DNA of 64,000 bases from Alphaproteobacteria bacterium RIFCSPLOWO2_01_FULL_40_26. GTDB lineage: Bacteria > Pseudomonadota > Alphaproteobacteria > Rickettsiales > UBA1997. The DNA lies in contig MEMO01000021.1 of NCBI GenBank assembly GCA_001767955.1, positions 8,344 through 72,343 on the forward strand. Direction: 5' to 3'. Below the pieces are notes generated by a model that was given only the letters and a program-made list of their open reading frames with translations, was not told the origin of the DNA and ran no database searches. Position 1 is the first letter of the stretch; each line of letters opens with the position of its first letter. The position numbers and the translations under genes were made by a program. Shown here one piece after another: positions 1,936 to 59,327 of the stretch.

Positions 1936-3387
1936 TCATGAATTCATTGCCTTAAAAAACTCCTCATTCGTCTTAGTGTGCTCGATTTTTTGAAGCAAGA
2001 ATTCCATTGCCTCAACCGGACTCATTTGATTAACAATTCTGCGCAACATCCAAACTTTTGACAAAGCGGCGCGATCGACCAGGAGCTCTTCTTTTCTGGT
2101 TCCGGATTTAGTGATATCAATGGCCGGGAAAATTCTTTTGTCGGAAATTTTGCGATCCAAAACAATTTCGGAATTGCCGGTGCCTTTGAATTCTTCAAAA
2201 ATCACCTCCTCCATTCTTGAACCGGTATCAACCAGCGCAGTTGCAATTATGGTTAGTGATCCGCCTTCTTCAATATTGCGCGCAGCGCCGAAAAATCTTT
2301 TTGGTTTTTGCAGGGCGTTGGAATCAACACCGCCGGTCAAAACCTTTCCCGATGAAGGAATAACAGTATTGTAAGCGCGAGCAAGACGGGTGATTGAATC
2401 AAGCAGAATCACCACATCCTTTTTTGCTTCAACCAACCGACGCGCTTTTTCGATGACCATTTCAGCAAGCTGAACATGACGTGTTGCCGGTTCATCAAAA
2501 GTTGAACTAACCACTTCGCCTTTAATAGTGCGTAGCATGTCGGTTACTTCTTCCGGACGTTCGTCGATCAATAATACCAACAAAACCACCTCGGGATGAT
2601 TGGTGGTAATGGCATGAGCAATGTTTTGCATCAGGGAAGTTTTACCGGTTTTTGGCGGCGCCACAATTAACGCGCGCTGGCCTTTGCCTAAAGGAGCAAC
2701 CATGTCGATGATGCGGGTGGAAATATCGTTATTCAGCGGCTTGTCTTCTTCCAGCTGCAATTTTTTGTTGGGATAAAGCGGAGTTAAATCATCAAACAAA
2801 ACGCGATTTCTGACTTTTTCGGGAGCGTCAAAATTCACTTCATTAACACGAAGCAGGGCAAAATATCTTTCACCCTTTTTTGGCGCGCGAATTTGGCCTT
2901 TCACGGTGTCGCCGGTTCTTAAAGCAAATCTTTTGATTTGACTTGGTGAAACGTAAATATCGTCTGAACCAGGGAAATAGTTGGTTTCCGGCGCTCTTAA
3001 AAAACCAAAACCATCTTCCAGAACTTCCAAAACACCTTCGCCAATAATGACATTTTCCGGGCTTTGATCAGAAAAACTTTTGAGAATATGATAGATAATA
3101 TCCTGACGACCAAAATCGCCGATATTTTCCAAACCATGCTGTTTAGCGATTTCAATCAGCTGCTCGGCGGATTTTGTTTTTAGGGATTTTAGCTCAAGAG
3201 TTTTACCATTAACGCCGACCTTACGTTCAAAACGCGCATTTTCTTCTTCATCATCAACAGAGGTTTGTTGATGGGTGAAATTTTGTTGACTGCTACGGCT
3301 GATCAGATTTCCGCTATGCAAACGGGAAGATTCATTATTTTCAGGAGTGCCGCTATTATAGCGCAAGGTAAGAGTGTTGGAAGACAT
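1936..3387 (-). CDS. rho: Transcription termination factor Rho (with ~60-aa N-terminal extension)
   Basis: Walker [19 protein letters not shown] and conserved Rho C-terminal blocks ([35 protein letters not shown]). Confidence 0.95.
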
Positions 3388-3496: not shown

Positions 3497-4108
3497 TTAA
3501 AACAAAAAACTTTTAACAAAACTTATCGCTTCAACCCCAAGAATTATGGTTGCAACAGAGATAAAAACACCGGTCATCCCAACTGTCATTCCAAGAATAA
3601 TCACCAAGCCATCCTTGCCAAGCAATCCAAAGGAAATAATCAAAACTCCAAGCCCCGGAATCAGGTTGGAAAAAGGAATTGGCAGCAAAATGAAGCTGGA
3701 AAAAAGCAGAACAAAAAGCCCGATTATTTTTTCGGCGAAAGGAACCGTCATGAAAAGAAGACGTGGCTTTAGAATGCGCTCAACTTTGCGAATTATCGGC
3801 GAGGATTTTTGTACCAACATCGCCAAAACCGATCTCTTGACTGTCATATCACAAAATCTTTTTGGCAATTTGGGAGCGGAATAACCAAAAGTCATCTGCG
3901 CAGAAAATATCAAAAGTGGAATAGCAATCACGCTTGGAAAAGGCGGTGGAAGCGGGACGATAATGCCAAGCGAAAAAATCATCATCGCCAAACCAAAACC
4001 GATTGAATCCATGGCGTCAATCAAATCGCGCAACGGCACACGATCGGAAGATGATTTATTGACAACATCTTCAATTACCTGAGTTGTGATTATTTTTTGT
4101 TGATCCAC
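3497..4108 (-). CDS. ExoD-family (exopolysaccharide synthesis) membrane protein
   Basis: ~200 aa, multi-TM. The N-terminal RVPLRDLIDAMDSIGFGLAMMIFSL..PLPPP pattern is typical of ExoD. Confidence 0.5.
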   Translation of the reverse strand: MDQQKIITTQVIEDVVNKSSSDRVPLRDLIDAMDSIGFGLAMMIFSLGIIVPLPPPFPSVIAIPLLIFSAQMTFGYSAPKLPKRFCDMTVKRSVLAMLVQKSSPIIRKVERILKPRLLFMTVPFAEKIIGLFVLLFSSFILLPIPFSNLIPGLGVLIISFGLLGKDGLVIILGMTVGMTGVFISVATIILGVEAISFVKSFLF

Positions 4109-5260: not shown

Positions 5261-5267
5261 TAATTAA

Positions 5268-5324
5268 GAATTATGAATTACGAATTGTTATGTTTTAATT
5301 CGTAATTCGTAAATCGTAATTCGT
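5268..5324. repeat. Imperfect palindrome with (ATTCGTA)n heptad arm in the thyX/uvrC divergent intergenic region
   Basis: GAATTATGAATTACGAATT..AATTCGTAATTCGTAAATCGTAATTCG has the same architecture as the family C heptad hairpins but a different heptad. Confidence 0.5.
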
Positions 5325-5710
5325 TTTTCTGATGCCAGTTTCGATTATCCAAAAACGGTTAAATTCAATACCACCCACTACCGGCATCTATCAGTTTTTT
5401 GATGACAAAACCCAACTCCTTTATGTCGGCAAGGCCAAGAATCTGCACAAACGCGTCAGTAGTTATACCAAGGAAAATCTGCTTTCGCCGCGCATTGCCC
5501 GCATGGTTCTTCTCACAAAAAAAATTGAGATAATTCAAACCGAAAATGAGGTGGAAGCGCTTTTGCTTGAGCACAATCTCATCAAAAAATTCCAACCCAA
5601 ATTCAATATTCTGCTGCGCGATGACAAAACCTTCCCACAAATTCTAATCACCAATCACAACTTCCCCCAAATCACCAAATTTCGTTCATTAAGATTGGAT
5701 AATATCGAGG

Positions 5711-5738
5711 CACAAAGCACGAAGCACGAAGCACGAAA
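5711..5738. repeat. Family C heptad arm (AGCACGA)x3 translated in frame inside uvrC
   Basis: CACAAAGCACGAAGCACGAAGCACGAAA encodes ..AQSTKHEARN.. Confidence 0.75.
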
Positions 5739-6460
5739 CCTGCATTTCGGACCATTCGCTTCAGCCCATGATGTCAATTACACCATCGATATTTTACGCA
5801 AAATTTTCCGCCTGCGCAATTGTTCCGATGCCGAATTCAAATCGCGCAAAAAACCATGTTTGGAATATCAAATAAAAAGATGCTATGCGCCATGTGTTGG
5901 CCTGATTTCACAAGAAGAATATGGCAGTGAAGTGCAAAATGCGCTAAATTTTTTAAGCGGAAAATCAGCTAGGTTGCAACATGATCTGACGCAAAAAATG
6001 CAACAATTCAGCGATAATTTTGAATATGAAAAAGCGATGCAAATTCGCGATCAGATCAAAGCATTAAACTCGATTCAAACCAAACAAAACATCAATGTTG
6101 GCGAAACCAAAGATTTCGACATAATCACCATTGCAACGAGTGGTGATATGGTCTGCGTTTATGTTTCATTTTATCGTGGCGGGCAAAATTTTGGAGCAAA
6201 ACCATATTTTTTTGAAAACAAAGATGAAGAAATTCTCAATGAATTTCTTGGTCAGTTTTATTTGTCAAACGCTCCTCCGAGCTTGATTATGATGAATCGC
6301 AAACTTTTGGAAAAAAAGTCGATGGAAGATTTTATAACAAGAATCGCTGGCAAAAAAGTTGAGATAATTTCCCCCAAAAAAGGCGCTAAATTTGAGTTGA
6401 TTACAAATCAGGAAAATATCGCCAGACAAAATCTCGAACAAAAAATTTCACAAAATTTAA

Positions 6461-6620
6461 GAACCTGTCCTGAATCTTTTTTAACCCCAGATTTTAGCAT
6501 GTTTTTAGCGCTTTTTTGACAAAATTACGAAGCGTATCTGGAAATACGGTGAGTAATTTTGTCAAAAAATAAGCAAAAACAGGGTAAAATATGGGGTTAA
6601 AAAAGATTTAGGACAGGTTC
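6461..6620. mobile_element. 160-bp palindromic MITE-like element, family B copy B1 (reverse orientation), interrupting uvrC
   Basis: IRs GAACCTGTCCTGAATCTTTTTTAACCCC / GGGGTTAAAAAAGATTTAGGACAGGTTC, flanked by a TAA direct repeat. The core matches 41077-41236, 49737-49896 and 59547-59706. Confidence 0.9.
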
Positions 6621-7145
6621 TAAGCATAAAAGAATTGCTGCTCGAAGTGAAAAAAATTTTCAGCCTGCCAAAAATTCCACAAAAAATTGAAGTTTATGAC
6701 AATAGCCACATTAGCGGAAGCAATGCGGTTGGCGCTATGATTGCCGCTGGTTTGGAAGGGTTTATCAAAAGTGGATATCGCAAATTCAATATTCGTTTTG
6801 AACACAAAAATCGCGATGACACCGCAATGCTTTATGAAGTTCTAAAAAGAAGATTTTCCAAGCAACATGATGGCCGGCCAGATTTCGTTATTATCGATGG
6901 TGGTTTAACTCAATTAAAGGCGGCACAAGAAATTTTCGACGAGATGAAAATCAAAATCCCTTTTGTCTGCATGTCGAAAGGAAAAAACAGAAATGCCGGA
7001 GAGGAAAATTTTCACATGATTGGAAAACAGTCTTTTACGCTACCAAAACATTCGCCAATAATGCACTATTTACAACGCTTGCGCGACGAGTCTCATCGCT
7101 TCGCCATCATGACTCACAGAAAAAAACGCGGGAAATTCTTATTTC

Positions 7146-8663
7146 TTACTTCTCAATAATCTCATCAACCACCATCTGATATTTACCACCAATCTGTTCT
7201 TCAAACACTTCCAAATGTTCGCCAAACCGGTCGTGAATTTTAAAAATAATTTTTGGGTTTTTGTCGTTTTTATTGACCTTGTACAAATCCCATAATTCAT
7301 AGTGCCGATGCCCGTTTTCATAGGCCACTTCAACTTTGATTTCACTGTCAAAAATAACCTGTAAAATTGTCATCTCCCATTTTTTGCCACGCTTTTGTGC
7401 AATAGCAGAAAGGCTGGTGATATTGGCAAAATCCGGCCCCAAAATATCATCAGTACTGTCGCGTAGAAGATACAAATTAAACGCCAAAGTCAGAGATTTG
7501 TTTTTTACTCTCCAAAGATAAGTGGTTGAAAGATTCTCGATGGTGTTTGCGGCAACATTGTGCTTCAAAAAAAACTTTTCGATTTTTTTGGTCAAATCAG
7601 GATATTTTTTAAAATCTTCGCGCCAGGAAATCTGATGATTGCGACTATCCGCAGCAATAAGGCGCGCATCTTCCGCTACATGTCCGCCTTCAATATTATA
7701 AAAATTCAAACTTCTTTGCCATTTAGTCACATAATTGCGATCAATGATTTTGTTTTTCTCAAAAAACTTTGCTTTGCCCACAAAAACTTTCCCGAGATTT
7801 TTTTTATCATGAATGCCGGTATAGTTTTCCTGCAGAAATTTTTTTAACGATTCTTGCGATTTGATTGAGGTTTTTTGCTGCGCTAATTTCTGCAATTCTT
7901 TGTCTTTCTTGAGTTCATCTGCCACAAAGGCAAAACTTTTTGTGTTTGATCTAACTGCAATTTTGACCAATTTTTTATCAGCCCTGATTTTTGGCGGCGC
8001 AAACTCAAGCAACAGACCATTATCTTCAAAAGCATCAGCTGCAATTTCAGGAATTTCTTTGAGACGATCAGAAGCAAATTTGTAATTGCGCGAGTCAATT
8101 GCAATCATCCGCTTCATGAAAAGTTTATTATCGAGCAAACTCCAACTTGCATATTGCAAAGAATCGCGGCTCAAATAAGTGGCCTTCTCCATAAAAGCCT
8201 GACTGGAGCGTAATTCCGGCGCGGCAAATTTCAAAGTTTCTGGACTAATTTTGAGCAGACGTTCAACAAAAACGGCATCTTCGCGCAAAGAATCATCGGC
8301 ATATTGAAACTGTTCGTAATCAAGCAATACCGCCTTTAAAATCAAAGTGCGGTCACGCCTGAAACATTCCGGCAAATCTTTGATGGCGTTTTGATTTTTC
8401 TTGCCGAGCTCTTCAAGAATTTTGTCGTAATAGCCACTGATATTGTTGCAATAATCCTCAGCAAAAAGGGAAGAACAGCAGAAGAAAAAAACAGCGGTGA
8501 AAATATTGATAAAGATTGTTCTCAAAATCCTGTGTCTTGTTCGTGCTTCGTGCTTCGTGCTTCGTGCTTCGATAATTTTAATCCACGAAGCACGAAGCAC
8601 GATGCACGATGCACGAAATATTCCGGACACAAAATTTTGCTTAATAACCTTGATAAACTTCAT
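7146..8663 (-). CDS. Secreted DUF4116-repeat protein of unknown function
   Basis: Repeated ..L.(Y/F)A...L..D...V..A(V/I).. units (LILKAVLLDYEQFQYADDSLRED, LLLEFAPPKIRADKKLVKIAV). A hydrophobic signal-like segment follows the repeat-encoded N-terminus. The start overlaps the nuoK stop by 1 nt. Confidence 0.5.
   Translation of the reverse strand: MKFIKVIKQNFVSGIFRASCIVLRASWIKIIEARSTKHEARTRHRILRTIFINIFTAVFFFCCSSLFAEDYCNNISGYYDKILEELGKKNQNAIKDLPECFRRDRTLILKAVLLDYEQFQYADDSLREDAVFVERLLKISPETLKFAAPELRSSQAFMEKATYLSRDSLQYASWSLLDNKLFMKRMIAIDSRNYKFASDRLKEIPEIAADAFEDNGLLLEFAPPKIRADKKLVKIAVRSNTKSFAFVADELKKDKELQKLAQQKTSIKSQESLKKFLQENYTGIHDKKNLGKVFVGKAKFFEKNKIIDRNYVTKWQRSLNFYNIEGGHVAEDARLIAADSRNHQISWREDFKKYPDLTKKIEKFFLKHNVAANTIENLSTTYLWRVKNKSLTLAFNLYLLRDSTDDILGPDFANITSLSAIAQKRGKKWEMTILQVIFDSEIKVEVAYENGHRHYELWDLYKVNKNDKNPKIIFKIHDRFGEHLEVFEEQIGGKYQMVVDEIIEK
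8531..8631. repeat. Family C heptad-arm hairpin (full copy C3), translated at the 5' end of the DUF4116 gene
   Basis: TGTGTC..(CTTCGTG)x4..CGATAATTTTAATC..(CACGAAG/CACGATG)x5..GACACA. Confidence 0.85.
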
Positions 8664-9618: not shown

Positions 9619-9706
9619 TGTGTCGGCGCATTTCGTGCTTCGTGCTTCGTGCGTCGTGCTTCGGTAGTTCTAAACCACGAAGCACGATGCACGAAATAAA
9701 GACACA
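9619..9706. repeat. Family C heptad-arm hairpin (copy C4), intergenic between nuoI and nuoJ
   Basis: TGTGTC..TTTCGTGCTTCGTGCTTCGTGCGTCGTGCTTCGG..CCACGAAGCACGATGCACGAAA..GACACA. Confidence 0.85.
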
Positions 9707-11234: not shown

Positions 11235-11741
11235 TTACAGTTTCACCAATGTCAACAAAACCGCGGCGACTAGAGCTGCAGCAATTCCAGCAAGTATATC
11301 ATCGAGCATTACTCCAAACGGGTTTTTAAAATTGCGATCGCAATAACCGATAATAAATGGTTTTTTTATGTCAAAAAAACGAAATAGAGCAAAGCATAAA
11401 ATCAGATATTCCGGCAAAAAATTGTCATCACCATAAATCAGAAAAAACGGCAATTGCAGTGCAATTATTTGCCCAACAACCTCATCGGCTACGATTGACT
11501 TGTGATCAATTTCACCAATTTTTTTTGCATAAACCGGAATGGCAAATAGGGAACATGAGACAATCACAACCAAAAAAACTGCCCAAAAGGAATATTGCCA
11601 TAATAGCGAAATTTGCTGACTTGCAAAACATCCAACAACAAAAAACCACAAAATCACAGAAGCAACAGAGCCAAACGTTCCTGGCGCTTTTTTGATTTTT
11701 CCGATATAGCAAAATGTAAGAAAAAATTTGGCGAAGCTCAT
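11235..11741 (-). CDS. pgpA: Phosphatidylglycerophosphatase A
   Basis: GTFGSVASV and DEVVGQ motifs. ATG 11741 lies 1 nt from element G1. Confidence 0.75.
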
Positions 11742-11742
11742 A

Positions 11743-11902
11743 GGCACTGTTAACTAATTATTTTTTTCGGGATTTTTCGCTAATTTTTAGCGACTTTTTT
11801 AAAAAATTTCGCCGCTGTATCAGATATACTGCAAGAAATTTTTTGAAAAAATGAGCAAAAATTTGCGGAAAAGCACGGAAAAAATAATTAGTTAACAGTG
11901 CC
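11743..11902. mobile_element. 160-bp palindromic MITE-like element, family G copy G1
   Basis: IRs GGCACTGTTAACTAATTATTTTTT / AAAAAATAATTAGTTAACAGTGCC with TA flanks. The core is similar to family A and G2. Confidence 0.85.
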
Positions 11903-13648
11903 TAAGATAATCCTGATTTCACTGCCTTCACTTTTCTGCGATTTGATTTCCAAAATTCCGCCCTGCTTTTCAATCAGATATTTTATGACCGGAAGCGAGA
12001 AAGTGAGAGAATCGACATTCTGAATATTTCTTGTGCTTTGTAACGCGATTTTTATTTCATTTTCTGTCATGCCACAACCTTGATCTTTAACGATGATTTC
12101 AATTGCCTTCGATTTTTTTACTCCACAGGCAATATGAATTTTTTTGAGCTCATTTTTATTTGAAATATTGCGAGCAATCACTTCAACCACGGTGCCGTTT
12201 TGGCTGTATCTTACAGCATTTCCTATCAGGCTTGTGATAATCTGCTTCATGCGCTTTTGATCAAGTGATGGCAGTTCATACAGCTTGCTATCAACTTTTG
12301 CCGTCAAAATGATGTCGCAACTTTCCGCATATTTTTTCGATTCATTAATCACCTTGTTAATGATCTTTGCCAAATTTATTGCTCTTGAGCTTTTTCTGAT
12401 TTTAAGACTGTCATTTTTGATGTGATTCATATCAAGCGCCTCACTCAAAAAATTGTGAAAATCATATGAAATAGTAATGATGTTTCGGCTCAATTCCAAA
12501 TTTGTTTTCAGCTTTTGCAATGCTTGCTGATCCTCATTTTTTAGATTTTTAACAAGTGAACCAAGATCATTTTTTATAATTTCTGCACAACCCTGAATAC
12601 CAAAAATAAAATTTTTAAATTCATGCGCGACTTTAACCAGAAATTCGGTTTTTTCTTCATTTGCCAACTCTGATTCCTGCTGTAGTCGTAAAATCCGTGA
12701 AGTCTGCTGTTTTTCACGCAAAACTAAAACCATTAGAACTATCAACCCAAACAGGGTCGAAAAAATTTCAAATAATCGTAAATGAGTGGTACGGAGTATC
12801 TCCATGGCTATGGCTTGCGGGTTGTATTTCAAAATTAAAACATATGGATAGGACTTTACCTTCTTCACTAAAAAAGCATGGCGATTTCCAAATAAAGCAA
12901 TGTCAAAAAATTTCTTATCCTCATGCAAATAAATTTGATTCAAAATCTTGCTGATCTTCGTGTTGTTAGCGGCATCATCATTTGATCTGTCAACTCCAAA
13001 GAATTGATGATCCCCATATAAAATCGGCACTTCATTTTTGCCAAAAAGACTAAATTTTATTTCCGGATTTTGTATCACCTCATGCATCAACTTCGCAAGA
13101 GTCTTCACTTCAAATCCGAGAACCAAAGCTCCAAGATATTTACCATTTTGATCTCTCAATCCCATAGCTGCCGGAATCAGCCATTTTTTTGTGCTCAAGC
13201 CAATTATCGGAGCTTCAAAATGCAAAATGCCAGGATATTGCTCTGTCATCGCGATATAAGACCGGCTCGAAACATCCATTGGTTTTGCCAGAATTCCATC
13301 ATTGGAAGTGATGACAAGTTGATAATTTTTGTCTATCCATGAAAGCACAGTCCAAGAAAAATTGGCAGAAAAATTTTCTCCGGTGCGATAAATGCGTAAA
13401 ATCCTTCCGATATAATCTTTATCAAACGGATTTTCTGCGATATTGAGATTGATATTTTTCATCATCAAAGTGGTGTAGTTCATCCTATCGCTGAAATTTC
13501 CTTCCAGCCTTGCCATTTCTACTTCCAGATCTGATCTAATTTTATCTTGCGCACTATTTTTTATGCGAATTGCAAACCAGGTTAAAAACAAGATTATGGT
13601 AAGAAAAATAACCAAAAATATCAGAGAAATTTTGTAATCTTTTTTCAC
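11888..13648 (-). CDS. Sensor histidine kinase with periplasmic Cache-like domain (no adjacent response regulator)
   Basis: H-box VAHEFKNFIFGIQG; ATP-lid VKDQGCGMTENE; an N-terminal TM and a second TM before the H-box. The last 4 codons and the stop lie in element G1. Confidence 0.8.
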   Translation of the reverse strand: MKKDYKISLIFLVIFLTIILFLTWFAIRIKNSAQDKIRSDLEVEMARLEGNFSDRMNYTTLMMKNINLNIAENPFDKDYIGRILRIYRTGENFSANFSWTVLSWIDKNYQLVITSNDGILAKPMDVSSRSYIAMTEQYPGILHFEAPIIGLSTKKWLIPAAMGLRDQNGKYLGALVLGFEVKTLAKLMHEVIQNPEIKFSLFGKNEVPILYGDHQFFGVDRSNDDAANNTKISKILNQIYLHEDKKFFDIALFGNRHAFLVKKVKSYPYVLILKYNPQAIAMEILRTTHLRLFEIFSTLFGLIVLMVLVLREKQQTSRILRLQQESELANEEKTEFLVKVAHEFKNFIFGIQGCAEIIKNDLGSLVKNLKNEDQQALQKLKTNLELSRNIITISYDFHNFLSEALDMNHIKNDSLKIRKSSRAINLAKIINKVINESKKYAESCDIILTAKVDSKLYELPSLDQKRMKQIITSLIGNAVRYSQNGTVVEVIARNISNKNELKKIHIACGVKKSKAIEIIVKDQGCGMTENEIKIALQSTRNIQNVDSLTFSLPVIKYLIEKQGGILEIKSQKSEGSEIRIILGTVN

Positions 13649-14810: not shown

Positions 14811-14859
14811 TGAATTTTTTTCAGATAGGAAAAATATGGCTTATGCCAAAATAGAGTTA

Positions 14860-14955
14860 CCCCTCACCCCAACCCTCTCCCACAAGGGGAGAGGGAGTTG
14901 CACCGAATTCGGATTAACTCCCTCTCCCCTTGTGGGAGAGGGTTGGGGTGAGGGG
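14860..14955. repeat. 96-bp GC-rich palindromic element, family D copy D1
   Basis: CCCCTCACCCCAACCCTCTCCCACAAGGGGAGAGGGAG..loop..CTCCCTCTCCCCTTGTGGGAGAGGGTTGGGGTGAGGGG with TA flanks. It matches 59328-59423 in reverse orientation. Confidence 0.9.
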
Positions 14956-15005
14956 TAGTTAATATTCTACGCCGACTATTTTAACTCTACGTCATTTTCA
15001 AATCA

Positions 15006-17910: not shown

Positions 17911-18438
17911 CTAATCAGCTCCAAACACTTCGCTCTTCTGCACCCACCCCTTTTTGCTTTCCATCTTCATCGCACACCATTCATCAACACATTTCAAATA
18001 ATCGCCAATCACATTGTTTTCCAATCGCAAGATGATGCGCGACTTCTCGTTTGGCTTGCTATGCATATTGATAAAATCCTTGGTGGTAAGCGCCATTAAG
18101 GTTCGTTTTTTGGTAAGCAGACTTTGCATAGCCCAACCGCTCTGTCCTTCATAATCCTCAATTTCACTCCAATTGTCATATTCGCTAATCACATGAACCG
18201 GCAAGCCGCGCAATTTGAAAGTGAATTTAACCGGATAATTCTGCCCAGGCCCGGAGCGAATATTGGTTTCATTCGAACGCAACGAAGCAAAATAATTTAC
18301 TTCAGAGATTTGTTTGGCAGCAAAAGCGGGGGAAACAACAAAATACAAACTCAACAACCCACGAAGCACGAAGCACACTGAAACAAGTTCAGTGCAGGCT
18401 GCACGAAGCACGATTTTATTTATTGGATTTTGTTTCAT
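17911..18438 (-). CDS. SH3-like domain protein (DUF1058 type), secreted
   Basis: NIRSGPGQNYPVKFTFKLRGLPVHVISEYDNWSEIEDYEGQSGW plus a second SH3-like half; signal-like N-terminus from MKQNPINK. Confidence 0.6.
   Translation of the reverse strand: MKQNPINKIVLRAACTELVSVCFVLRGLLSLYFVVSPAFAAKQISEVNYFASLRSNETNIRSGPGQNYPVKFTFKLRGLPVHVISEYDNWSEIEDYEGQSGWAMQSLLTKKRTLMALTTKDFINMHSKPNEKSRIILRLENNVIGDYLKCVDEWCAMKMESKKGWVQKSEVFGAD
18359..18413. repeat. Heptad-arm hairpin repeat, subfamily C' (copy 2), in the N-terminal coding region of the SH3 protein
   Basis: Reverse complement of 1863-1915; encodes ..RAACTELVSVCFVLRG.. Confidence 0.8.
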
Positions 18439-19753: not shown

Positions 19754-20175
19754 GGCTGATAATGATAGCGACATTGCACAATGATCACACGACCATCTTG
19801 AATCATGTAAACTAGCCGGTGCTCATCATTGATCCGACGCGACCAAAAACCGGATAAATTACCTCTCAACGCTTCTGGTTTTCCGGTTCCAGAAAATGGA
19901 GTACGAGCAATTTCTTTAATTAAAGCATTAATTCGCTTGATCATCGTTCTATCATGTTGCTGCCAATAAACATAGTCTTCCAAGGCATTAGAGCCTGTTT
20001 TCAAACCCAGCGCGTTTCGATTTTGCCCAAATTTTGTGCGACTTTTTGGCAAAATTTTGCCGCTGTATCTGGCATACTGCAAAAAATTTTGCCAAAAAAC
20101 GAGCCAAAATTTGGGCAAAAGCGAAATGTGGTGGGTTTGAAAACAGGCTCTAAAATCAAAACTAATTTGTTTCAT
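19750..20175 (-). CDS. yoeB: YoeB/Txe-family toxin carrying a 54-aa in-frame palindromic-element insertion after residue 8
   Basis: ..ALEDYVYWQQHD..RTPFSGTGKPEALRGNLSGFWSRRINDEHRLVYMI..VIIVQCRYHY. Confidence 0.8.
   Translation of the reverse strand: MKQISFDFRACFQTHHISLLPKFWLVFWQNFLQYARYSGKILPKSRTKFGQNRNALGLKTGSNALEDYVYWQQHDRTMIKRINALIKEIARTPFSGTGKPEALRGNLSGFWSRRINDEHRLVYMIQDGRVIIVQCRYHYQP
19991..20150. mobile_element. 160-bp palindromic MITE-like element, family A copy A2 (inside yoeB)
   Basis: GAGCCTGTTTTCAAACCC..GGGTTTGAAAACAGGCTC with TA flanks. Confidence 0.9.
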
Positions 20176-20434: not shown

Positions 20435-21559
<1,125 letters not shown>

Positions 21560-21601
21560 TTAGAGACACAACACTTCTGATAACAACCAAATTTTTGGTT
21601 G

Positions 21602-30341: not shown

Positions 30342-31016
30342 TCAAATTAGAACCTGCTCTCTAAAACTGAAATAACCCTCTTTCGCAATAATCAGATGAT
30401 CTAACACTTTGATTTCCAAATTCTTCAGCGCGGCGGAAATTTCATTGGTGGTTTTGATGTCATTTGCTGAAGCGCGTAAATCGCCGCCTGGATGATTATG
30501 CAACAAAATCACAAAAGAAGCATGAAGCATCAGAGCCTTTCTCGCCACTGTTTTGGCGCTTACAACAACATGATCATTTTCTCCGATGCCAAGCAATTCG
30601 TCCTCAATGAGACGGTATTTTTTATCGAGAAAAAGCACGCGAAAAACTTCGTAATCCAAATCTTTCAGAGCGACGCTGGCGTAGTCCAAAACTGCTTGCC
30701 AATCATTTAAAACCGGTTTTTTGCGCGCGGAATTTTTTAAAACACGATGCAGAATTTCGCTGATGATTTTGATTTGAGTAATTGCCGCCTCTCCTACCCC
30801 CTCAACACTTCTCAACATTTCAACATCGGCGCTAATCACTGCGGAAATATCGCCAAATTTTGTTATTAATTTTTTGGCGATCGCTTTGGTATCCTGCCTT
30901 GGATGCGCGGCAAAAAGCAGGATTTCCAACAATTCATAATCGTGGAGTTCCTTTCCAAGCGAGGCGAGAAATTTTTTTCTAACGCGTGATCTATGTCCGA
31001 GATAATCGTCTATCAT
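30342..31016 (-). CDS. radC: RadC-family JAB-domain protein
   Basis: ILLHNHPGGD JAMM motif; HhH-like N-terminal half. Confidence 0.85.
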   Translation of the reverse strand: MIDDYLGHRSRVRKKFLASLGKELHDYELLEILLFAAHPRQDTKAIAKKLITKFGDISAVISADVEMLRSVEGVGEAAITQIKIISEILHRVLKNSARKKPVLNDWQAVLDYASVALKDLDYEVFRVLFLDKKYRLIEDELLGIGENDHVVVSAKTVARKALMLHASFVILLHNHPGGDLRASANDIKTTNEISAALKNLEIKVLDHLIIAKEGYFSFREQVLI

Positions 31017-31183
31017 AACCCCAATAACGCTTAAGGAATTATGGCTTAAGTCTACAAACTCTGAGTAAAACCAATAAACTCCACCACACTGTCACCCCGC
31101 GGGGTGACAGTGTGGTGAGATTTGTGATTTAGCTTAGAGTCTGTAAATTTGAATCTGGGTTTCTTAAACGTTATTGGGGTTAT
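31015..31183. mobile_element. Palindromic MITE-like element, family F copy F1
   Basis: IRs ATAACCCCAATAACGCTTAAG / CTTAAACGTTATTGGGGTTAT; centre CCACCACACTGTCACCCCGC|GGGGTGACAGTGTGGTGAG. Confidence 0.85.
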
Positions 31184-31802
31184 CATAAATTCGTGGTGTA
31201 ATTTTATCGGTTGTAAAATTTTTTACTCCCAAAATTTCAAGCTCGCGCATTCTGTTTAAATCATTCACCGTCCAGGCAAAAATTTCAGTATCAGGAAATT
31301 TTTTCATAAAATTTTCATCTATCAGATCATGAAAAATTGACAGGAATTTTATGTTTTTTGGCAATGCATTGATATCTTTATCGCAAACCACGACCAGCTG
31401 CGCATCATCACCAAAAACCTCAATAATTATGGCAAAAAATTTTTCTGCGATTTTGTAGTCGGTGATAAAAGGGGCAAAATAAATTTTTTTTAAATCTATA
31501 AATGCTTTATCAAAATCTTTCTTGACCATAATCATAACTTCCTTCGCATTTTCTTCGGTTAGATTTTTAAAATCTAACCAGTAATCCATTTCATTACCGA
31601 AAAGCAGAAAATCACTAAGACTTGTCAAACTTTCTCCGGCTCTTGGTTGATCATGCGCTAAAACCAGGTTTCTTTTCAGAACCCAAATATCAAACTCAAC
31701 AGCGCGAAAGCCGTGTTTGTAAGCTTTCTTTAAACTTGCAACTGAATGTTCGGCGATATTTTTATGCGGACAAAAACCGCGATGGGCAAATAACCGTATC
31801 AT
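31164..31802 (-). CDS. Glycerophosphodiester phosphodiesterase-family protein
   Basis: FAHRGF..H..ASL..A...GF.AVEFDIW..LVLAHD pattern. The last 6 codons (DNPNNV) lie in element F1. Confidence 0.6.
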   Translation of the reverse strand: MIRLFAHRGFCPHKNIAEHSVASLKKAYKHGFRAVEFDIWVLKRNLVLAHDQPRAGESLTSLSDFLLFGNEMDYWLDFKNLTEENAKEVMIMVKKDFDKAFIDLKKIYFAPFITDYKIAEKFFAIIIEVFGDDAQLVVVCDKDINALPKNIKFLSIFHDLIDENFMKKFPDTEIFAWTVNDLNRMRELEILGVKNFTTDKITPRIYDNPNNV

Positions 31803-32315: not shown

Positions 32316-34268
32316 ATGACAAACAAAACAATTATCATTGATGCTGCGCATCGCGAAGAAACGCGCGTCGCAGTTTTAGAAAACGGCATTCTACAGGATT
32401 TCGACCGCGAAGCCGTCGCCATCAAGCAAATCAAAGGCAATATCTATCTTGCAAAAGTAATCAGGGTTGAGCCGTCATTGCAGGCATGCTTTGTTGATTA
32501 TGGATCAGATCGTCATGGATTTTTACCCTTTGCCGATATTCACCCCGATTATTTCCAGATTTCCGAAAGCGAAAAACAACGTCTGCGCGAAATAACTCAA
32601 CCTACAAAACAGCAGGAAGAAGAGGAAAATCAGCCTCAAAATAGCAACGAAAATAGAAATAACGATAAGGGTGAAAATGAGGAATCAATCACTACCGGCT
32701 CTTATTCGGTTGAAGATGAAGCCGATCTTTATCGCGGCAATATTCACAGCATCTACAAACGCTACAACATGCAGGATGTCATCAAAGCCGGCCAGATGAT
32801 TTTAGTGCAAGTTGCTAAAGAAGAACGCGGCAACAAAGGTGCTTCGATGACTTCTTACATCTCAATCGCCGGCAAATATTGCGTTTTGATGGCCAACACC
32901 CCAAACAAAGGTGGTGTCTCAAAAAAGGTGGATAATTTCCGCGACCGCAAACTTTTGCGTTCGCTTTTGAATGAAATATCGGTGCCATTAGATCGCTCGA
33001 TAATCATTCGAACCGCAGGCGTCGGCAAAAAGCCGGAAGAAATCAGGCGCGATTATGATTACCTGAGCAGATTATGGGATAACATTCGGCAAATTGCCAA
33101 TTCCTCCACTGCGCCAAATTTTATCCACGCTGAAGATGACGTAATCCGCAGATGCATTCGCGATATCTATAACGAACAGGTCAATGAAGTTGTGGTTGAA
33201 GGCGCAACGGCTTATGAAACCGTGGTAAATTTTGTCAAATTGACAATGCCAAATGCGCCGCAAAACATCAAACTTCATGATGAACGTATTCCGGTTTTCA
33301 ACAAACATCGTGTCGAACAGCAAATCGACGCTCTTTACGAAAAGCAGATTTATCTGCCATCCGGCGGTTCAATTGTGATTGATCATGCTGAAGCTTTGGT
33401 TGCAATTGATGTCAACTCCGGACGCGCCACCAAAGAAAGCGGCGTTGAAGAAACTGCCTTCAGCACCAATCTCGAAGCAGTCAGAGAAATAGCCAGACAA
33501 CTACGCTTACGCGACTTGGCCGGATTGATCGTCATAGATTTCATCGACATGTATGAACACAGACATCGCCGCAACATTGAAAGAGCGTTGCGTGATGAGT
33601 TGCATGATGACCGCGCCCGTATTCAACTTGGCAGAATCAGCGTGTTCGGCTTGCTGGAAATGTCGCGTCAACGTCTTGGAGCAAGCTTTTTTGAAATCAT
33701 CACCGAACCTTGTAAACATTGCGGTGGCACTGGATATGTGCCTTCGGTTGAAATTCTGGCGGTAAGCATTTTGCGCGCTATCAGACATGCCTGCATTGAT
33801 AAGCAGGCCGGTGTTATTTACGTCTACGCCAATGCTGAAACCATCGCCTATATGCTCAACTACAAAAAGAACGACATCGCCACAACCGAAAACAGCTATG
33901 GCATTCATATCTTTATGCATGTCAGCGACGAAGTCGGCGCCCAGGGATTCAACATCAAAAGGCGCAAAAGCCTTTCTGACGACGAAAAACGCGAGATTGA
34001 AATGCAGGTCACAACCGGCAAAGTCAATCAACTTGGATTGGAAAAAAGCTATTTTGAAAGCTACGAAAACCGGACAAGCGAAGAACCGGAAAACTTCAAT
34101 CGTCGTGACCGCAACAAAAAATTCCGCGACAAAAGCCGAAAAAACCGCCGCACTGATAATCGCGATAGAAGAAAATTTACAGAAAGAAGAGATGGGAATA
34201 GAGCGACAAATGAAGGAGTAAAAAAATCTTTCCTCGGCTCTTTATTTTCATTTGGAAAACGGAATTAG
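32316..34268 (+). CDS. rne: Ribonuclease E (E/G family) with acidic S1-domain insert and Arg-rich tail
   Basis: GNIYLAKVIRVEPSLQACFVDYG; DSGGSIVIDHAEALVAIDVNSG-type block (LPSGGSIVIDHAEALVAIDVNSGRA); CxxC CKHCGGTG; tail RRDRNKKFRDKSRKNRR. Confidence 0.9.
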   Translation: MTNKTIIIDAAHREETRVAVLENGILQDFDREAVAIKQIKGNIYLAKVIRVEPSLQACFVDYGSDRHGFLPFADIHPDYFQISESEKQRLREITQPTKQQEEEENQPQNSNENRNNDKGENEESITTGSYSVEDEADLYRGNIHSIYKRYNMQDVIKAGQMILVQVAKEERGNKGASMTSYISIAGKYCVLMANTPNKGGVSKKVDNFRDRKLLRSLLNEISVPLDRSIIIRTAGVGKKPEEIRRDYDYLSRLWDNIRQIANSSTAPNFIHAEDDVIRRCIRDIYNEQVNEVVVEGATAYETVVNFVKLTMPNAPQNIKLHDERIPVFNKHRVEQQIDALYEKQIYLPSGGSIVIDHAEALVAIDVNSGRATKESGVEETAFSTNLEAVREIARQLRLRDLAGLIVIDFIDMYEHRHRRNIERALRDELHDDRARIQLGRISVFGLLEMSRQRLGASFFEIITEPCKHCGGTGYVPSVEILAVSILRAIRHACIDKQAGVIYVYANAETIAYMLNYKKNDIATTENSYGIHIFMHVSDEVGAQGFNIKRRKSLSDDEKREIEMQVTTGKVNQLGLEKSYFESYENRTSEEPENFNRRDRNKKFRDKSRKNRRTDNRDRRKFTERRDGNRATNEGVKKSFLGSLFSFGKRN

Positions 34269-34286: not shown

Positions 34287-34523
34287 ATAACCCCAATAAC
34301 GCTTAAGGAATTATGGCTTAAGTCTACAAACTCTAAGTAAAACCAATAAACTCCACCACACTGTCACCCCGCACTTGTTGCGGGGTCCATTTGGTCGCAA
34401 CCAATAAAATCAAGTCTTTGACGAGATGGACCCCGCAACAAGTGCGGGGTGACAGTGTGGTGAGATTTGTGATTTAGCTTAGAGTCTGTAAATTTGAATC
34501 TGGGTTTCTTAAACGTTATTGGG
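34287..34523. mobile_element. Family F copy F2 with a nested family E double hairpin (34373-34443)
   Basis: Same arms as F1, but the centre carries ACTTGTTGCGGGGTCC..GGACCCCGCAACAAGT. A 12-bp direct repeat GGGATTAGTATA occurs at 34278-34289 and 34521-34532. Confidence 0.85.
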
Positions 34524-40055: not shown

Positions 40056-41090
40056 ATGACCGATTTAGAAAAACTTTTATCCGATTTCAATTCGCAAGTT
40101 TTTGCAATTAAAGACAAGAAAAGCCTTGAGGAAATTCGCATTAGTTTTCTTGGAAAAAAAGGTTTGGTAACCGAGCTTTTTTCACAGCTAAAAAATCTTG
40201 CCGCTGAAGAAAAAAAATCATTTGGAGCAGGAATAAACCAGCTTCGCGATCAAATCACAAAACAACTCGACGATAAAAAAGATGAATTTGAAATAGCTGA
40301 ATTAAACGAAAAATTAAGTGACGAAAAAATTGATCTTACCGAACCGGTTCGCAAAAAAAGCATTGGCCTGATTCATCCAGTCAGCAAAGTGATGAGAGAA
40401 ATCGAAGAAATTTTTTCACAGTTTGGATTTGAATTTGCTCAAGGCCCGGAAATTGAAGATGATTTTCACAATTTCACCGCACTCAATATCGACGAAACCC
40501 ATCCGGCACGCCAGATGCAAGACACTTTCTATCTCAAAAATTCTGAATTATTGCTGCGCACTCACACTTCAAATGTGCAAATCAGAAAAATGCAAAATTC
40601 CAAACCACCTTTTAGAATTGCGGCTTTGGGACGCGTTTTTCGTTGTGATTCCGATCAAACTCACGCACCGATGTTTCACCAGTTTGAAGGATTTGTTGTC
40701 GATGAAAATATCACAATGGGACATCTCAAATGGACGTTAGAAAATTTTTTACAGAAATTCTTTGGGGATAGAAATCTTGAGTTGCGTTTTCGTCCAAGCT
40801 TCTTCCCATTCACCGAACCATCAGCCGAAGTTGACATAAATTACACCATCGAGCAGGAAAAAATTAAAATTGGCAATGGTGATAAATTCATGGAAATTCT
40901 TGGATGCGGCATGATTCATCCAAATGTTTTAAGAAACTGCGGAATTGACGATGAAAAATTTCAAGGCTTCGCCTTCGGCATAGGAATAGAGCGCCTCGCC
41001 ATGCTAAAATATGGCATTGCTGATTTGCGGATGTTCTTTGAAAATGATGTGAGGTTTTTGAATCATTTTGGGTTTAGAAACTGTTTATAA
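40056..41090 (+). CDS. pheS: Phenylalanyl-tRNA synthetase alpha subunit (no adjacent pheT); last 4 codons and stop lie inside element B2
   Basis: HPARQMQDTFY, FRCDSDQTHAPMFHQFEG, GFAFGIGIERLAMLKYGIADLRMFFENDVRFL. Confidence 0.95.
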   Translation: MTDLEKLLSDFNSQVFAIKDKKSLEEIRISFLGKKGLVTELFSQLKNLAAEEKKSFGAGINQLRDQITKQLDDKKDEFEIAELNEKLSDEKIDLTEPVRKKSIGLIHPVSKVMREIEEIFSQFGFEFAQGPEIEDDFHNFTALNIDETHPARQMQDTFYLKNSELLLRTHTSNVQIRKMQNSKPPFRIAALGRVFRCDSDQTHAPMFHQFEGFVVDENITMGHLKWTLENFLQKFFGDRNLELRFRPSFFPFTEPSAEVDINYTIEQEKIKIGNGDKFMEILGCGMIHPNVLRNCGIDDEKFQGFAFGIGIERLAMLKYGIADLRMFFENDVRFLNHFGFRNCL

Positions 41091-41236
41091 TCTTTTTTAA
41101 CCCCATATTTTACCCTGTTTTTGCTTATTTTTTGACAAAATTACTCACCGTATTTCCAGATACGCTTCGTAATTTTGTCAAAAAAGCGCTAAAAACATGC
41201 TAAAATCTGGGGTTAAAAAAGATCATAAACAGTTTC
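41077..41236. mobile_element. 160-bp palindromic MITE-like element, family B copy B2
   Basis: GAAACTGTTTATAATCTTTTTTAACCCC..GGGGTTAAAAAAGATCATAAACAGTTTC, flanked by a TTA direct repeat. Confidence 0.9.
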
Positions 41237-42175
41237 TTAGAACCAGTATTTAAAAAGCTCTGGCAATTTGGTTTTAATTTTCAGTTTCCCAATTTTGATT
41301 TCATGGGCATGAAGACAAAGACGATCTGAAATATCTTTTCGCAACACTTTTTTTCCGCCGTATTTTACATCATTGATGATGGGATGTCCGATTTCCTTGC
41401 AATGAACACGGAGCTGATGGGTGCGGCCAGTAAGCGGTTTTAACTCAAGCAATGAATAATCTGTAAAACTTTTTAAAACTTTAAATTCAGTAATCGCCTC
41501 TTTTCCCTCCTCAAAATCAGGAGAAACTTTTTCGTTTTTGCCTTGAATTTTTTTGCGCAGAGGAATGTTAATTATGCCATGCGATTTTTTTGGAATGCCG
41601 TAAACCAAGGCTAGATATGTCTTCTTGATGGTTTTGTTTTTAAAAGCTTCAGTCAGAAATTCAGTGGATTTTGCATTTTTGGCTATAAGTAAAATACCAG
41701 AAGTGTCTTTGTCGAGACGGTGAACTAATTGCCATTTCTCGTGCTTCGTGCTTCGTGCTTCGTGCTTCGGAATTATGGAATTTTGGTGAAATAAAAAGTC
41801 ATCAACCGAAACATCTATGCCGCTTCCTCCTTGAGTGGCAAGGCCTGAAGGCTTATCAAGCGCGATCAGATTTTCATCTTCAAAAATTATCCACGACAAA
41901 AATTTTTGCATTTTTGCGGTAGAAATTTTTGTTCTTTGTTTCTGATTTTCACGACGGTTTTTTAGATCAGAAAAAATTTCTACCTGATCTGCATCTTTGA
42001 TTTTATAGGCTGAATCAACTCTTGCGCCATTGACTTTCACTTTCTTTTCACGAATCAGTTTTTGCGCCAGAGCAAAAGAAATATCAAATTTTTTACAGAG
42101 AAATTTATCGAGACGAAGGCCTGCTAACTCTTGATTAGCATGGCTTAGGGCGTGTTGACATTCATTTTTATTCAC
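41237..42175 (-). CDS. RluA-family pseudouridine synthase (RluC/RluD-like) with S4 domain and in-frame heptad-repeat insertion
   Basis: S4 LRLDKFL..; catalytic HRLDKDTSG; TGRTHQLRVH. The GTG start lies inside element G2. Confidence 0.85.
   Translation of the reverse strand: MNKNECQHALSHANQELAGLRLDKFLCKKFDISFALAQKLIREKKVKVNGARVDSAYKIKDADQVEIFSDLKNRRENQKQRTKISTAKMQKFLSWIIFEDENLIALDKPSGLATQGGSGIDVSVDDFLFHQNSIIPKHEARSTKHEKWQLVHRLDKDTSGILLIAKNAKSTEFLTEAFKNKTIKKTYLALVYGIPKKSHGIINIPLRKKIQGKNEKVSPDFEEGKEAITEFKVLKSFTDYSLLELKPLTGRTHQLRVHCKEIGHPIINDVKYGGKKVLRKDISDRLCLHAHEIKIGKLKIKTKLPELFKYWF
41748..41770. repeat. Family C heptad arm (GTGCTTC)x~4, translated in frame in the pseudouridine synthase gene
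   Basis: CTCGTGCTTCGTGCTTCGTGCTTCGTGCTTCGG encodes ..PKHEARSTKHEK.. immediately upstream of the HRLD motif. Confidence 0.8.
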
Positions 42176-42307
42176 AGTTTTTCAGAAATTTTTAGCGACT
42201 TTTTTGAAGAATTTTGAAGCTGTATTAGACATACTGCAAAAAATTCTTCAAAAAAATGAGCAAAAATTTGTGGAAAAATGGGAATAAAAATGAATGTCAA
42301 CACGCCC
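42148..42307. mobile_element. 160-bp palindromic MITE-like element, family G copy G2
   Basis: IRs GGGCGTGTTGACATTCATTTTTATTC / GAATAAAAATGAATGTCAACACGCCC with TA flanks. The core is shared with G1 and family A. Confidence 0.85.
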
Positions 42308-42699
42308 TAATTGCATATCAATTTCATCAAATGAAAACCGAAAAACAAAGCGACAATTGAAATTACGACAGAAGAAATCGCATAAATCGCGGCTTGAGGA
42401 TATTGGCCGGCAGTGGCTAGACGGAAGAAATCAAGCGAAAAAGATGAAAAGGTTGTGAACCCTCCGAGAAAACCGATGAGCAAAAAATTCTTCAAACGCG
42501 GATCAAAATTGTCAAAATTTTTGATGATGAAATAGTAGATAATGCCTGCAAACATTGATCCCGCAACATTCACAAAAAAAGTTCCCCAAGGAAAATTTGT
42601 TAGAGAATGGTTGAGTTTCGTGATTGCTTCCGACGAAAGATAACGCGCAACAGAACCTAAAGCACCACCGATTGCGATTAAAATCAAATTTGTCATCAA
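42307..42699 (-). CDS. crcB: Fluoride ion channel CrcB
   Basis: 130 aa, 4 TM; [10 protein letters not shown] and [12 protein letters not shown]. Confidence 0.9.
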
Positions 42700-46390: not shown

Positions 46391-46450
46391 TTTGTGCTTC
46401 GTGCCTCGTGCTTCGTGCTTCGTTAATTTTGAACCACGAAGCACGAAAAC
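46391..46450. repeat. Family C heptad-arm hairpin (copy C7) just upstream of gltX
   Basis: TTTGTGCTTCGTGCCTCGTGCTTCGTGCTTCGTTAATTTTGAACCACGAAGCACGAAAAC. Confidence 0.8.
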
Positions 46451-48240: not shown

Positions 48241-48249
48241 AGCCTGTTA

Positions 48250-48409
48250 GAGCCTGTCTTAAAACCCAACGTGTCTCGATTTTCCATAAATTTTGAGCGA
48301 CTTTTTGGCAAAATTTTGCCGCTGTATCTGGCATACTGCAAAAAATTTTGCCAAAAAACGAGCCAAAATTTATGGAAAAGCGAGGCGCGGTGGGTTTTAA
48401 GACAGGCTC
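48250..48409. mobile_element. 160-bp palindromic MITE-like element, family A copy A3 (intergenic)
   Basis: GAGCCTGTCTTAAAACCC..GGGTTTTAAGACAGGCTC. The core is identical to A2 and the arms differ by paired substitutions. It is preceded by a 10-bp duplication TTAGAGCCTG (48237-48246 / 48247-48256). Confidence 0.9.
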
Positions 48410-48450
48410 TAGCTAATTATTTTAAACAAAATTCGTAAATAGAAAATTTT

Positions 48451-48916: not shown

Positions 48917-49711
48917 GTGAAAATTCTTGCTTTTGATACCACCTCTTTCGGCCTTTCCGTAGCCCTTTTGAACAATGAAAAAATAATCCCAGATCCGTCA
49001 TTAGAACCGTCCAGAATTCCGCTAAGCCACGATTCTCCTGGCCTCGAGCGAGCACCGCACCGGAAGCGTATCATGCATACGCTGACGGAGCGGAGCGCAG
49101 AACGAGGTCAAGAGAATCGTGGATTAGTAGGAATTATGGGCAGTTCTAATGACGGATCTGGGATAATTGTAAAAAGCCTTATCTCTGAAAGTGGAAAGCA
49201 GTCGGAATTTTTAATTCCGGAGATCGAAAAAATTCTGCGCGCACAGAAAATCTGGTATCAGGATTTGGCTTTAATCGCAACAACCAATGGTCCCGGAAGC
49301 TTCACCGGAACTCGCATCGGACTCACCACAGCACGCACAATAAAAGCCGCAATTAATCTACCGCTGATTTTGGTTAATTCCTGCGAAGCAATCGCTTTCA
49401 AATATCGTAAAAAATCGGGGAAAATTTTTGTTGTGCTTGACGCATCAAATGATGAATTTTTTTGTGCCGGCTTTCTTGCTGAAAACGAAAAACTCATACA
49501 AATCATGAAGCCTTGTCTGGCAAGGGAAGATGAGCTACCAAAAATTCTACCACAGGAAAATTTTTTTCTCTGCGGCACTAAAAATGGCGATGTTGTTGCA
49601 GCAGATTTGATAGGAGTTTTGGCTTATGAAAAATTCAAAAATGGTGAGATTTCGCAGAATCTTGATCCCCTCTATTTGAGGATGCCAAGGATTAGCGAGA
49701 GAAAGAAATAA
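48917..49711 (+). CDS. tsaB: tRNA t6A modification protein TsaB carrying a 60-aa in-frame palindromic insertion
   Basis: (V)KILAFDTTSFGLSVALL..; ATTNGPGSFTGTRIGLTTAR. GTG start. Confidence 0.85.
   Translation: MKILAFDTTSFGLSVALLNNEKIIPDPSLEPSRIPLSHDSPGLERAPHRKRIMHTLTERSAERGQENRGLVGIMGSSNDGSGIIVKSLISESGKQSEFLIPEIEKILRAQKIWYQDLALIATTNGPGSFTGTRIGLTTARTIKAAINLPLILVNSCEAIAFKYRKKSGKIFVVLDASNDEFFCAGFLAENEKLIQIMKPCLAREDELPKILPQENFFLCGTKNGDVVAADLIGVLAYEKFKNGEISQNLDPLYLRMPRISERKK
48986..49164. mobile_element. ~180-bp palindromic element, family H (single copy in window), in frame inside tsaB
   Basis: ATCCCAGATCCGTCATTAGAAC..GTTCTAATGACGGATCTGGGAT, with further internal complementary blocks (CCACGATTCTC / GAGAATCGTGG). 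Confidence 0.8.
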
Positions 49712-49737
49712 TTTAAGATTTAGGATTTAGGATTTAG
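49711..49737. repeat. (GATTTAG)n 7-bp microsatellite abutting the left end of element B3
   Basis: ATTTAA GATTTAG GATTTAG GATTTAG; the last G is the first nt of B3. Confidence 0.8.
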
Positions 49738-49896
49738 AACCTGTTCAGGATCTTTTTTAACCCCATATTTTACCCTGTTTTTGCTTATTTTTTGACAAAA
49801 TTACTCACCGTATTGCCAGATACGCTTCGTAATTTTGTCAAAAAAGCGCTAAAAACATGCTAAAATCTGGGGTTAAAAAAGATCCTGAACAGGTTC
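49737..49896. mobile_element. 160-bp palindromic MITE-like element, family B copy B3
   Basis: GAACCTGTTCAGGATCTTTTTTAACCCC..GGGGTTAAAAAAGATCCTGAACAGGTTC with TTA flanks. Confidence 0.9.
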
Positions 49897-59298: not shown

Positions 59299-59327
59299 AA
59301 TTTACTTTACTCTCCCTAGCTCATTTA

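Follow-up and report, generated by a model that had tools for sequence, protein, structure and literature searches.

At positions 5332-7159 of the window, by which we mean the whole stretch of 64,000 nt of DNA that was analysed, lies a single UvrC coding region with foreign DNA in between. An earlier note on this DNA had described uvrC as split into ORF 5332-6519 and ORF 6635-7159, and both open reading frames are found exactly there. The N-terminal part of the gene (5332-6460, plus strand) comprises codons 1-376 and the first base of codon 377. According to Pfam, it encodes a GIY-YIG nuclease domain, a UVR (UvrB-binding) motif and the N-subdomain of UvrC_RNaseH; PF01541 and PF02151 both score above their cut-offs in the corresponding ORF (395 aa), and the predicted start, MPVSIIQKRL, agrees with the MPxExIK of homologues. 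The C-terminal part (6624-7159, plus strand) carries the entire RNase H-like 5′-incision endonuclease domain, which is recognized in ORF 6635-7159 (174 aa) as UvrC_RNaseH_dom (PF08459, E = 1.4e-47). The Asp-Asp-His triad of this domain (D402, D468 and H534) is intact, falls in invariant columns of the alignment with homologues, and also aligns to T. maritima UvrC. The start of the C-terminal part is called differently among databases, i.e., at TTG 6635 (174 aa) by NCBI and at GTG 6647 (170 aa) by JGI and ENA.

A single uninterrupted UvrC frame is absent from the locus and is regained in silico only. Excision of 163 nt, corresponding to the inserted element plus one TAA, yields a single ORF of 554 codons that reads ..QNLEQKISQNL-S-IKELLLEVKK.. 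across the join, with ISQNLSIKELLLEVK as the junction peptide. This repaired junction aligns without a gap (MAFFT) with 13 intact homologues, whose consensus is ..QNLEQKISQNLNxKELLLEVKK... The nearest orthologue within the species-genome collection, MAG REEB439 (L002, 69% identity), was used as a proxy for the empty site, and its DNA, AAATTTAGGCGAAAAAGAA, aligns base for base with AAATTTAAGCATAAAAGAA in the repaired window. The proposal of the earlier note that removing 163 nt restores a continuous UvrC is thereby borne out against both the homologous proteins and the orthologous DNA. Deleting 160 nt also keeps the frame but leaves one additional codon (..QNL-IS-IKE..) that is present in no homologue, and deleting 162 nt destroys the reading frame. 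Because only the 163-nt removal matches the homologues, the inserted DNA amounts to 163 nt, composed of a 160-nt element and a 3-bp duplication. Since 163 is not a multiple of three, the frame is lost: it crosses 19 codons of the element before it meets a premature TGA at 6517-6519. By translation, the resulting read-through tail (6460-6519 including the stop, plus strand) is encoded by the element; its sequence, RTCPESFLTPDFSMFLALF, is identical in proteins P0006, P0121 and P0123.

The element itself, the uvrC copy of a repeat termed family B, spans 6461-6620 (plus strand) and is 160 nt long, non-coding and palindromic. It lies, as the earlier note had reported, between two TAA direct repeats, which form the left (6458-6460) and right (6621-6623) copies of a target-site duplication on the plus strand. 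The palindrome is near-perfect, with 78-nt arms that are 85% complementary and a 6-nt loop; the terminal inverted repeats are GAACCTGTCCTGAATC and GATTTAGGACAGGTTC, and the termini read GAACCTGTCC.. and ..GGACAGGTTC. As RNA, the element folds into one hairpin of -90.8 kcal/mol, compared with -30.7 ± 3.5 kcal/mol for shuffled sequences (z = -17). It has no ORF of its own, and the overlapping ORFs of at least 30 aa only extend into it from the flanks. A search of Rfam with the element returned no match, and a scan for promoters and terminators found nothing above chance level within the element or just past it.

Family B is present in four copies within the 64 kb of the window, which share pairwise identities of 92-99%, and its terminal 17-mer occurs four times where 0.14 occurrences are expected. 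The three other window copies are all in the orientation opposite to that of the uvrC copy. The second copy (41077-41236, minus strand) is flanked by a TTA at 41237-41239 that is the TAA stop codon of a minus-strand pseudouridine synthase gene (41237-42175), and this stop is retained; on the other side, the convergent pheS gene (40056-41090) extends 14 nt into the copy for its last codons and stop. TAA stop codons are possible natural "safe" targets for family B. Both remaining window copies are intergenic and adjoin an (ATTTAGG)n heptamer array: the third (49737-49896, minus strand) lies between a tsaB-like gene and a tRNA gene, and the fourth (59547-59706, minus strand) upstream of gpmI. A fifth copy is found at 3787-3946 of L086, a contig of the same organism. 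Once oriented alike, all five copies have TAA..TAA flanks. Their internal 128 nt are almost invariant, with at most one private change per copy and none in the uvrC copy. The copies vary at terminal positions 4 and 9-13, where six pairs are changed on both arms among the five copies. This variation defines three types of terminal inverted repeat (TIR; equivalents of 6461-6476/6605-6620) in which the arms always change together; internal mismatches between the arms are conserved and have not been homogenised. Family B thus comprises TIR subfamilies. Co-variation of the TIRs may stem from the existence of several cognate transposase variants or from selection that maintains the hairpin.

A further view of copy number is provided by Logan contigs of eight runs, in which the depth within the element is ~90-140x the depth of the uvrC flanks, a ratio possibly inflated up to 2-fold by cross-matching of the two arms. 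About 100 copies per genome are consistent with four copies per 64 kb and a genome of 1.5-2 Mb. In two further runs, X10 and X11, only the element is found, at low depth and unaccompanied by its flanks, which is what a high-copy repeat should show where the organism is rare. A scan of GTDB species genomes, among which neither the host genome nor element-carrying relatives are represented, gave 0 matches to the element core. Precomputed Pfam maps of the window and of ~30 kb of flanking DNA beyond it show no transposase gene, and contig sequences diverging inside the element, possibly belonging to a longer relative, were found neither in the window nor at the other loci. Altogether, the element is short and non-coding, carries terminal inverted repeats, is bounded by a target-site duplication for which an empty-site proxy exists, and belongs to many similar copies: it is a MITE, i.e., a non-autonomous DNA transposon. 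Family B constitutes an undescribed MITE family that has apparently been recently active.

Eighteen contigs encode the product of the N-terminal ORF, either exact or with one S/R difference; they belong to groundwater and sediment metagenome assemblies at NCBI, ENA and JGI (NCBI records GCA_001768925.1 and GCA_001768015.1). The locus occurs in no RNA-seq run. Over aligned bases, identity to the window is 99.97% or higher in all contigs that were retrieved, L082 having an additional single 32-nt indel. The nearest other UvrC sequences are merely 68-71% identical, and for this reason phylogeny can date the insertion only to the interval between this divergence and the coalescence of the sampled clone. 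Within this interval, the state of the gene is informative. The repaired protein retains 160 of the 162 columns that are at least 97% conserved across 116 homologues, and its two departures, L335I and A533S, are conservative; it ranks 21 of 117 by this measure, for which the median is 1 departing column and the maximum 6. The earlier note had found neither half otherwise damaged, and indeed no extra stops or frameshifts occur in either of them: 4.7% of all single-base changes in the coding sequence would yield a stop, and none is present. If the gene evolves neutrally, the ceiling on divergence since insertion is 3.75% from the stops (95% level) and ~1.7% from the conserved residues. In the uvrC copy of the element, the duplication is intact and private internal substitutions are absent. 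These observations indirectly support an insertion that would be evolutionarily young; alternatively, decay may have been prevented by purifying selection that still acts on both halves. The earlier note had called the insertion recent on the strength of frame restoration, which alone is insufficient, and the insertion is not polymorphic in the sample; the absence of decay, the neutral bound of 1.7-3.8% and the youth of the family nonetheless speak for recency. An ancient and conserved two-ORF arrangement, raised in the same note as a contrary possibility, was rejected: none of the intact orthologues recovered is split, their UvrC being single-chain, and the inserted DNA is at least 98% internally identical to other copies.

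The best explanation of the locus, and in our view a highly probable one, is a real MITE insertion that disrupts uvrC. A MITE entered a TAA spanning codons 376/377 of uvrC, with duplication of this TAA. Transposition would have depended on a DDE transposase supplied in trans from another locus, possibly an IS5-like enzyme; this suggestion is based on the 3-bp TAA duplication, which is typical of IS1031/ISL2-type IS5 elements and of the related PIF/Harbinger-Tourist system. The product would be a truncated N-terminal protein consisting of the GIY-YIG domain, the UVR motif and a 19-aa foreign tail, and the complete 5′-incision endonuclease domain would be left downstream without its normal start. 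Expression of the downstream half could be depressed in three ways, i.e., by the 78-bp mRNA hairpin, by the premature stop (Rho polarity) and by RNase III, and we infer that expression of the C-terminal half is lowered. The window includes rho (1936-3387), the RNase III gene rnc (61978-62661) and an RNase E/G gene (32316-34268), and RNase III cuts transcripts at the hairpins of other MITEs, the Correia elements (PMC10969869). Because the hairpin, the premature stop and RNase III would all act against the downstream half, full-length UvrC and normal dual-incision excision repair would probably be lost or severely reduced. The rarity of UV-type damage in an aquifer would explain why such a loss is tolerated. 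Neither uvrA nor uvrB was found in the window or in the fetched flanks.

Three other readings of the locus have to be weighed against a disruptive insertion. One is that the assembly is wrong and that the repeat was misplaced within an intact uvrC. Assemblers do break at repeats, and several contigs (L001 and L086-L091) end inside the element, as is usual for short-read assemblers at such places; moreover, seven of the nine Logan runs contain an "opposite strands" joint at 6457/6563, which is the artefact expected of a palindrome. However, four independently assembled scaffolds from different samples (L082-L085) cross the entire element with identical sequence, and the 3-bp duplication is perfect here, as it is at other copies. 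Logan contigs of the nine runs, of which X4 and X7 agree in every number and are probably duplicates of one data set, add further support: in each of the eight runs holding the locus, a left-flank unitig reaches 6485 and a right-flank unitig starts from 6595, with equal flank depths, and unitigs penetrate the element by 25 nt from either side. The earlier note had named assembly error as one of two findings that would refute its claim, and the spanning scaffolds together with both junctions in unitigs rule it out. The search for empty-site alleles that it proposed also came back negative: the joint of 6460 to 6624 is present in none of the 18 contigs and in no contig or unitig of any run holding the locus, Logan contigs being prone to suppress rare variants such as a minority empty-site allele. 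JGI metagenome contigs gave 0 exact matches to the empty-site junction, but also 0 to the positive-control left flank, which is common to both alleles, and this collection is thus without the organism. The artefact reading is effectively refuted, with a probability that is close to nil. Because the empty-site allele was never seen, the insertion is fixed or dominant in a near-clonal population.

A second reading accepts the insertion and holds that the split is tolerated. Bound to UvrB, the N-terminal half would serve as a 3′ nuclease in the manner of Cho, the C-terminal half would be translated separately from TTG 6635 or GTG 6647, both halves would be under purifying selection, and repair would persist. 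E. coli Cho, a natural UvrC homologue, has the N-terminal half only and makes the 3′ incision. The point of insertion is also suggestive: the break separates residue 376 from residue 377 and one Pfam domain from the next. The T. maritima endonuclease domain, which folds independently, was crystallised in constructs (2NRR/2NRT) whose alignment with the repaired protein begins at residues 379-380, 3 residues downstream of the split. A landing near this boundary is nevertheless unremarkable, since it took one of 48 T[AT]A sites in a gene with several inter-domain linkers. Both halves are undamaged, with every catalytic residue kept, and the arrangement is fixed in every sample, yet youth explains the lack of decay equally well and all intact homologues recovered are single-chain. 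Translation of the C-terminal half would have to rely on TTG or GTG, whereas ATG is used by 31 of the 36 genes here, and both candidate starts are located 116-128 nt past the upstream stop and directly behind a hairpin of -90 kcal/mol, 14-26 nt beyond its foot; a promoter-like site is absent within or after the element. The absence of a Shine-Dalgarno sequence was dropped as an argument against separate translation, because just 3 of 36 genes have one: initiation without it is the norm here, and the hairpin is followed by an A-rich region. On balance, a tolerated split is unlikely, though it deserves consideration, and the same low probability attaches to a variant in which ribosomes ending the first ORF would melt the hairpin and expose the start of the C-terminal half. 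The third reading, for which we see hardly any likelihood, invokes removal or skipping of the element after transcription, through a ribosome hop or through RNA cleavage and re-ligation, to give full-length UvrC. A hop from UUA (6457-6459) to the in-frame CUA (6620-6622), both encoding Leu, would give exactly ..QNL-S-IKELL.., the intervening RNA is a compact hairpin, and bypassing is known from T4 gene 60 and from the mitochondrial "byp" elements of Magnusiomyces. However, take-off and landing codons differ at their first base, so that the same peptidyl-tRNA would mispair, the gap, at 163 nt, exceeds that of gene 60 more than threefold, and the take-off codon is not followed by a stop codon; hopping from UUA to CUA is therefore very unlikely. 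As for re-ligation, RNase III products are not known to be substrates for bacterial RNA ligation pathways. Rfam holds no matching family, and the other four copies lie outside the body of reading frames (one clips the last pheS codons), giving no sign of coding-specific adaptation.

Two further peculiarities of this uvrC had been pointed out in the earlier note. The C-terminal part ends without an (HhH)2 domain, at the position the note had given, but this is not peculiar to the genome and is common to homologues of 64-71% identity. HhH Pfam domains are absent from all homologues listed with identities of 61% or more (P0001-P0086), those of them that were aligned end within a few residues of HRKKRxK, and (HhH)2 is retained by about a dozen homologues of ~600 aa each at 57-61% identity. 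This distribution points to an old clade-wide trait; damage to the C-terminus was considered and rejected, as all close homologues stop at the same place. The other peculiarity, an in-frame heptad-repeat insertion, was confirmed and measures 11 aa. IEAQSTKHEAR (about 5704-5736, plus strand) is made of GCACGAA-type heptamer repeats (TRF array 5706-5737) and corresponds to a gap in the 13 aligned homologues and in the 20 of a second comparison, being found only in this genome. The sole population SNP seen in uvrC (S/R) lies within this heptamer tract and is the only difference between P0006 and P0121; orthologue P0094 has its own 21-aa insert at the same site. Other UvrC orthologues of the HhH-less clade carry lineage-specific in-frame inserts of 17-104 aa at recurrent sites, located after window residues ~125, 296, 340, 437 and 512 (carriers: P0004, P0029, P0041, P0047-P0049, P0054, P0056, P0059, P0078, P0094 and P0114). 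The insert of P0004 (..PSPHPSPTRGEGV..) resembles the translation of a palindrome family found in the window at 14858-14957 and 59323-59428, and it seems that palindromic repeats are often translated in this clade.

The 64 kb contain at least 15 palindromic elements. Family A comprises palindromes at 176-337, 11738-11907, 19988-20153, 42145-42310 and 48248-48411, and possibly 31011-31187, with a length of 162-177 nt, arms of 69-73 nt, a 24-nt loop and ends TTAGAGCCTGT.. / GAGCCTGT... It is weakly homologous to family B (nhmmer E = 1e-10 to 1e-7), with which it has GA(A/G)CCTGT-type termini in common. The copy at 176-337 (162 nt, 54 codons) lies within proB, which is one 425-aa protein in some assemblies and two genes in that of NCBI, where 32 extra nt are present; the copy at 19988-20153 separates the antitoxin gene yefM from the toxin gene yoeB. 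A 187-nt inverted repeat (48982-49168) is located inside the tsaB-like ORF 48917-49711, in which Pfam TsaD covers residues 96-203 only and for which the NCBI protein (191 aa) begins past the inverted repeat. It looks like either an in-frame palindrome insertion in the style of the Rickettsia palindromic elements (RPEs) or an N-terminal truncation. The family at 14858-14957 and 59323-59428 is ~100-106 nt long and contains CCCTCACCCCAACCCTCTCCCACAAGGGGAGAGGG; another, of ~95-109 nt with GACCCCGCAACAAGTGCGGGGTGACA, is found at 21476-21570, 34354-34462 and 63805-63897. A perfect tandem repeat of 18 nt x 3.3 occupies 59416-59475. In addition, 7-nt tandem arrays (GCACGAA, TAATTCG and ATTTAGG, 2-5 copies each) are spread over genes and spacers, at 5262-5324, 5706-5737, 8540-8617, 9632-9695, 18360-18376, 41739-41769, 46394-46423, 49711-49737 and 59514-59547. 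Some of them are arranged as inverted pairs (8540-8571 / 8586-8617), and two ATTTAGG arrays lie right next to MITE copies. Within a gene, a change in the number of 7-nt units would alter the reading frame. Finally, gene calls in the rho-tatA interval (~3497-4108) differ among assemblies of one population (L083, L084 and L089 compared with the window), with an ExoD-like gene of 203 aa as against a 110-aa ORF on the opposite strand; since the DNA is at least 99.99% identical, the discrepancy is one of gene calling and not of strain variation.

Family B shares with the bacterial MITEs, such as Correia/NEMIS of Neisseria, RUP of S. pneumoniae and ERIC/IRU of enterobacteria, a short, non-coding body with terminal inverted repeats and a short duplication, ~100 dispersed copies and a long hairpin on transcription. 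The cleavage of Correia hairpins by RNase III (PMC10969869) has a potential counterpart here, the rnc gene being present in the same window. The duplication is TAA (3 bp), whereas that of Correia and RUP is TA, and the whole 160 nt form a single palindrome instead of an unrelated core enclosed by two ~26-bp ends; family B also differs from these MITEs in having no curated Rfam relative and in its host, an uncultured groundwater alphaproteobacterium. RPEs are similar in being palindromic, in their size of 100-170 nt and in entering protein-coding genes, as other palindrome families here do in the proB and tsaB-like frames, and the host is an alphaproteobacterium related to Rickettsiales-labelled MAGs. 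Unlike RPEs, which are translated through, the uvrC insertion of 163 nt brings a frameshift and stops; terminal repeats and a target duplication are also clearly present. Being out of frame, with stops and a target duplication, the uvrC element is not strictly an RPE, although the surrounding genome shows RPE-like behaviour. The 3-bp TAA duplication and the GA(A/G)CCTGT-type termini of families A and B are also suggestive of IS5 elements (IS1031/ISL2-type), PIF/Harbinger and Tourist MITEs, a possible likeness that serves as a lead only. Neither the window nor the other loci retrieved contain a recognizable DDE transposase, and relative to the internal orientation of the element the duplication is TAA and never TTA in 5/5 copies (p about 0.06), a bias that a symmetric cut-and-paste model does not predict. 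At the protein level, the N-terminal ORF has the GIY-YIG and UvrB-binding set of E. coli Cho, and the C-terminal ORF corresponds to the stand-alone endonuclease domain of PDB 2NRR/2NRT. In contrast to Cho and to the crystallised halves, the two predicted pieces here result from a transposon hit in a gene that is single-chain in all intact homologues recovered.

For annotation, the consequence is that the two "UvrC" ORFs of public MAGs represent one gene broken by a mobile element, and the locus provides a clean worked example of such an event, with a perfect empty-site proxy in the nearest orthologue. Were the split tolerated, it would constitute a natural experiment showing that the two UvrC incision activities can work in trans, and selection would account for the position at the domain boundary and for the pristine state of both halves. 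If, as appears far more probable, uvrC has been disrupted, the case would fit with transposon hits in dispensable repair genes being common, and with an aquifer organism that may have a limited need for UV-type excision repair. More generally, the genome is saturated with palindromic repeats, some of them inside reading frames, as in Rickettsia.
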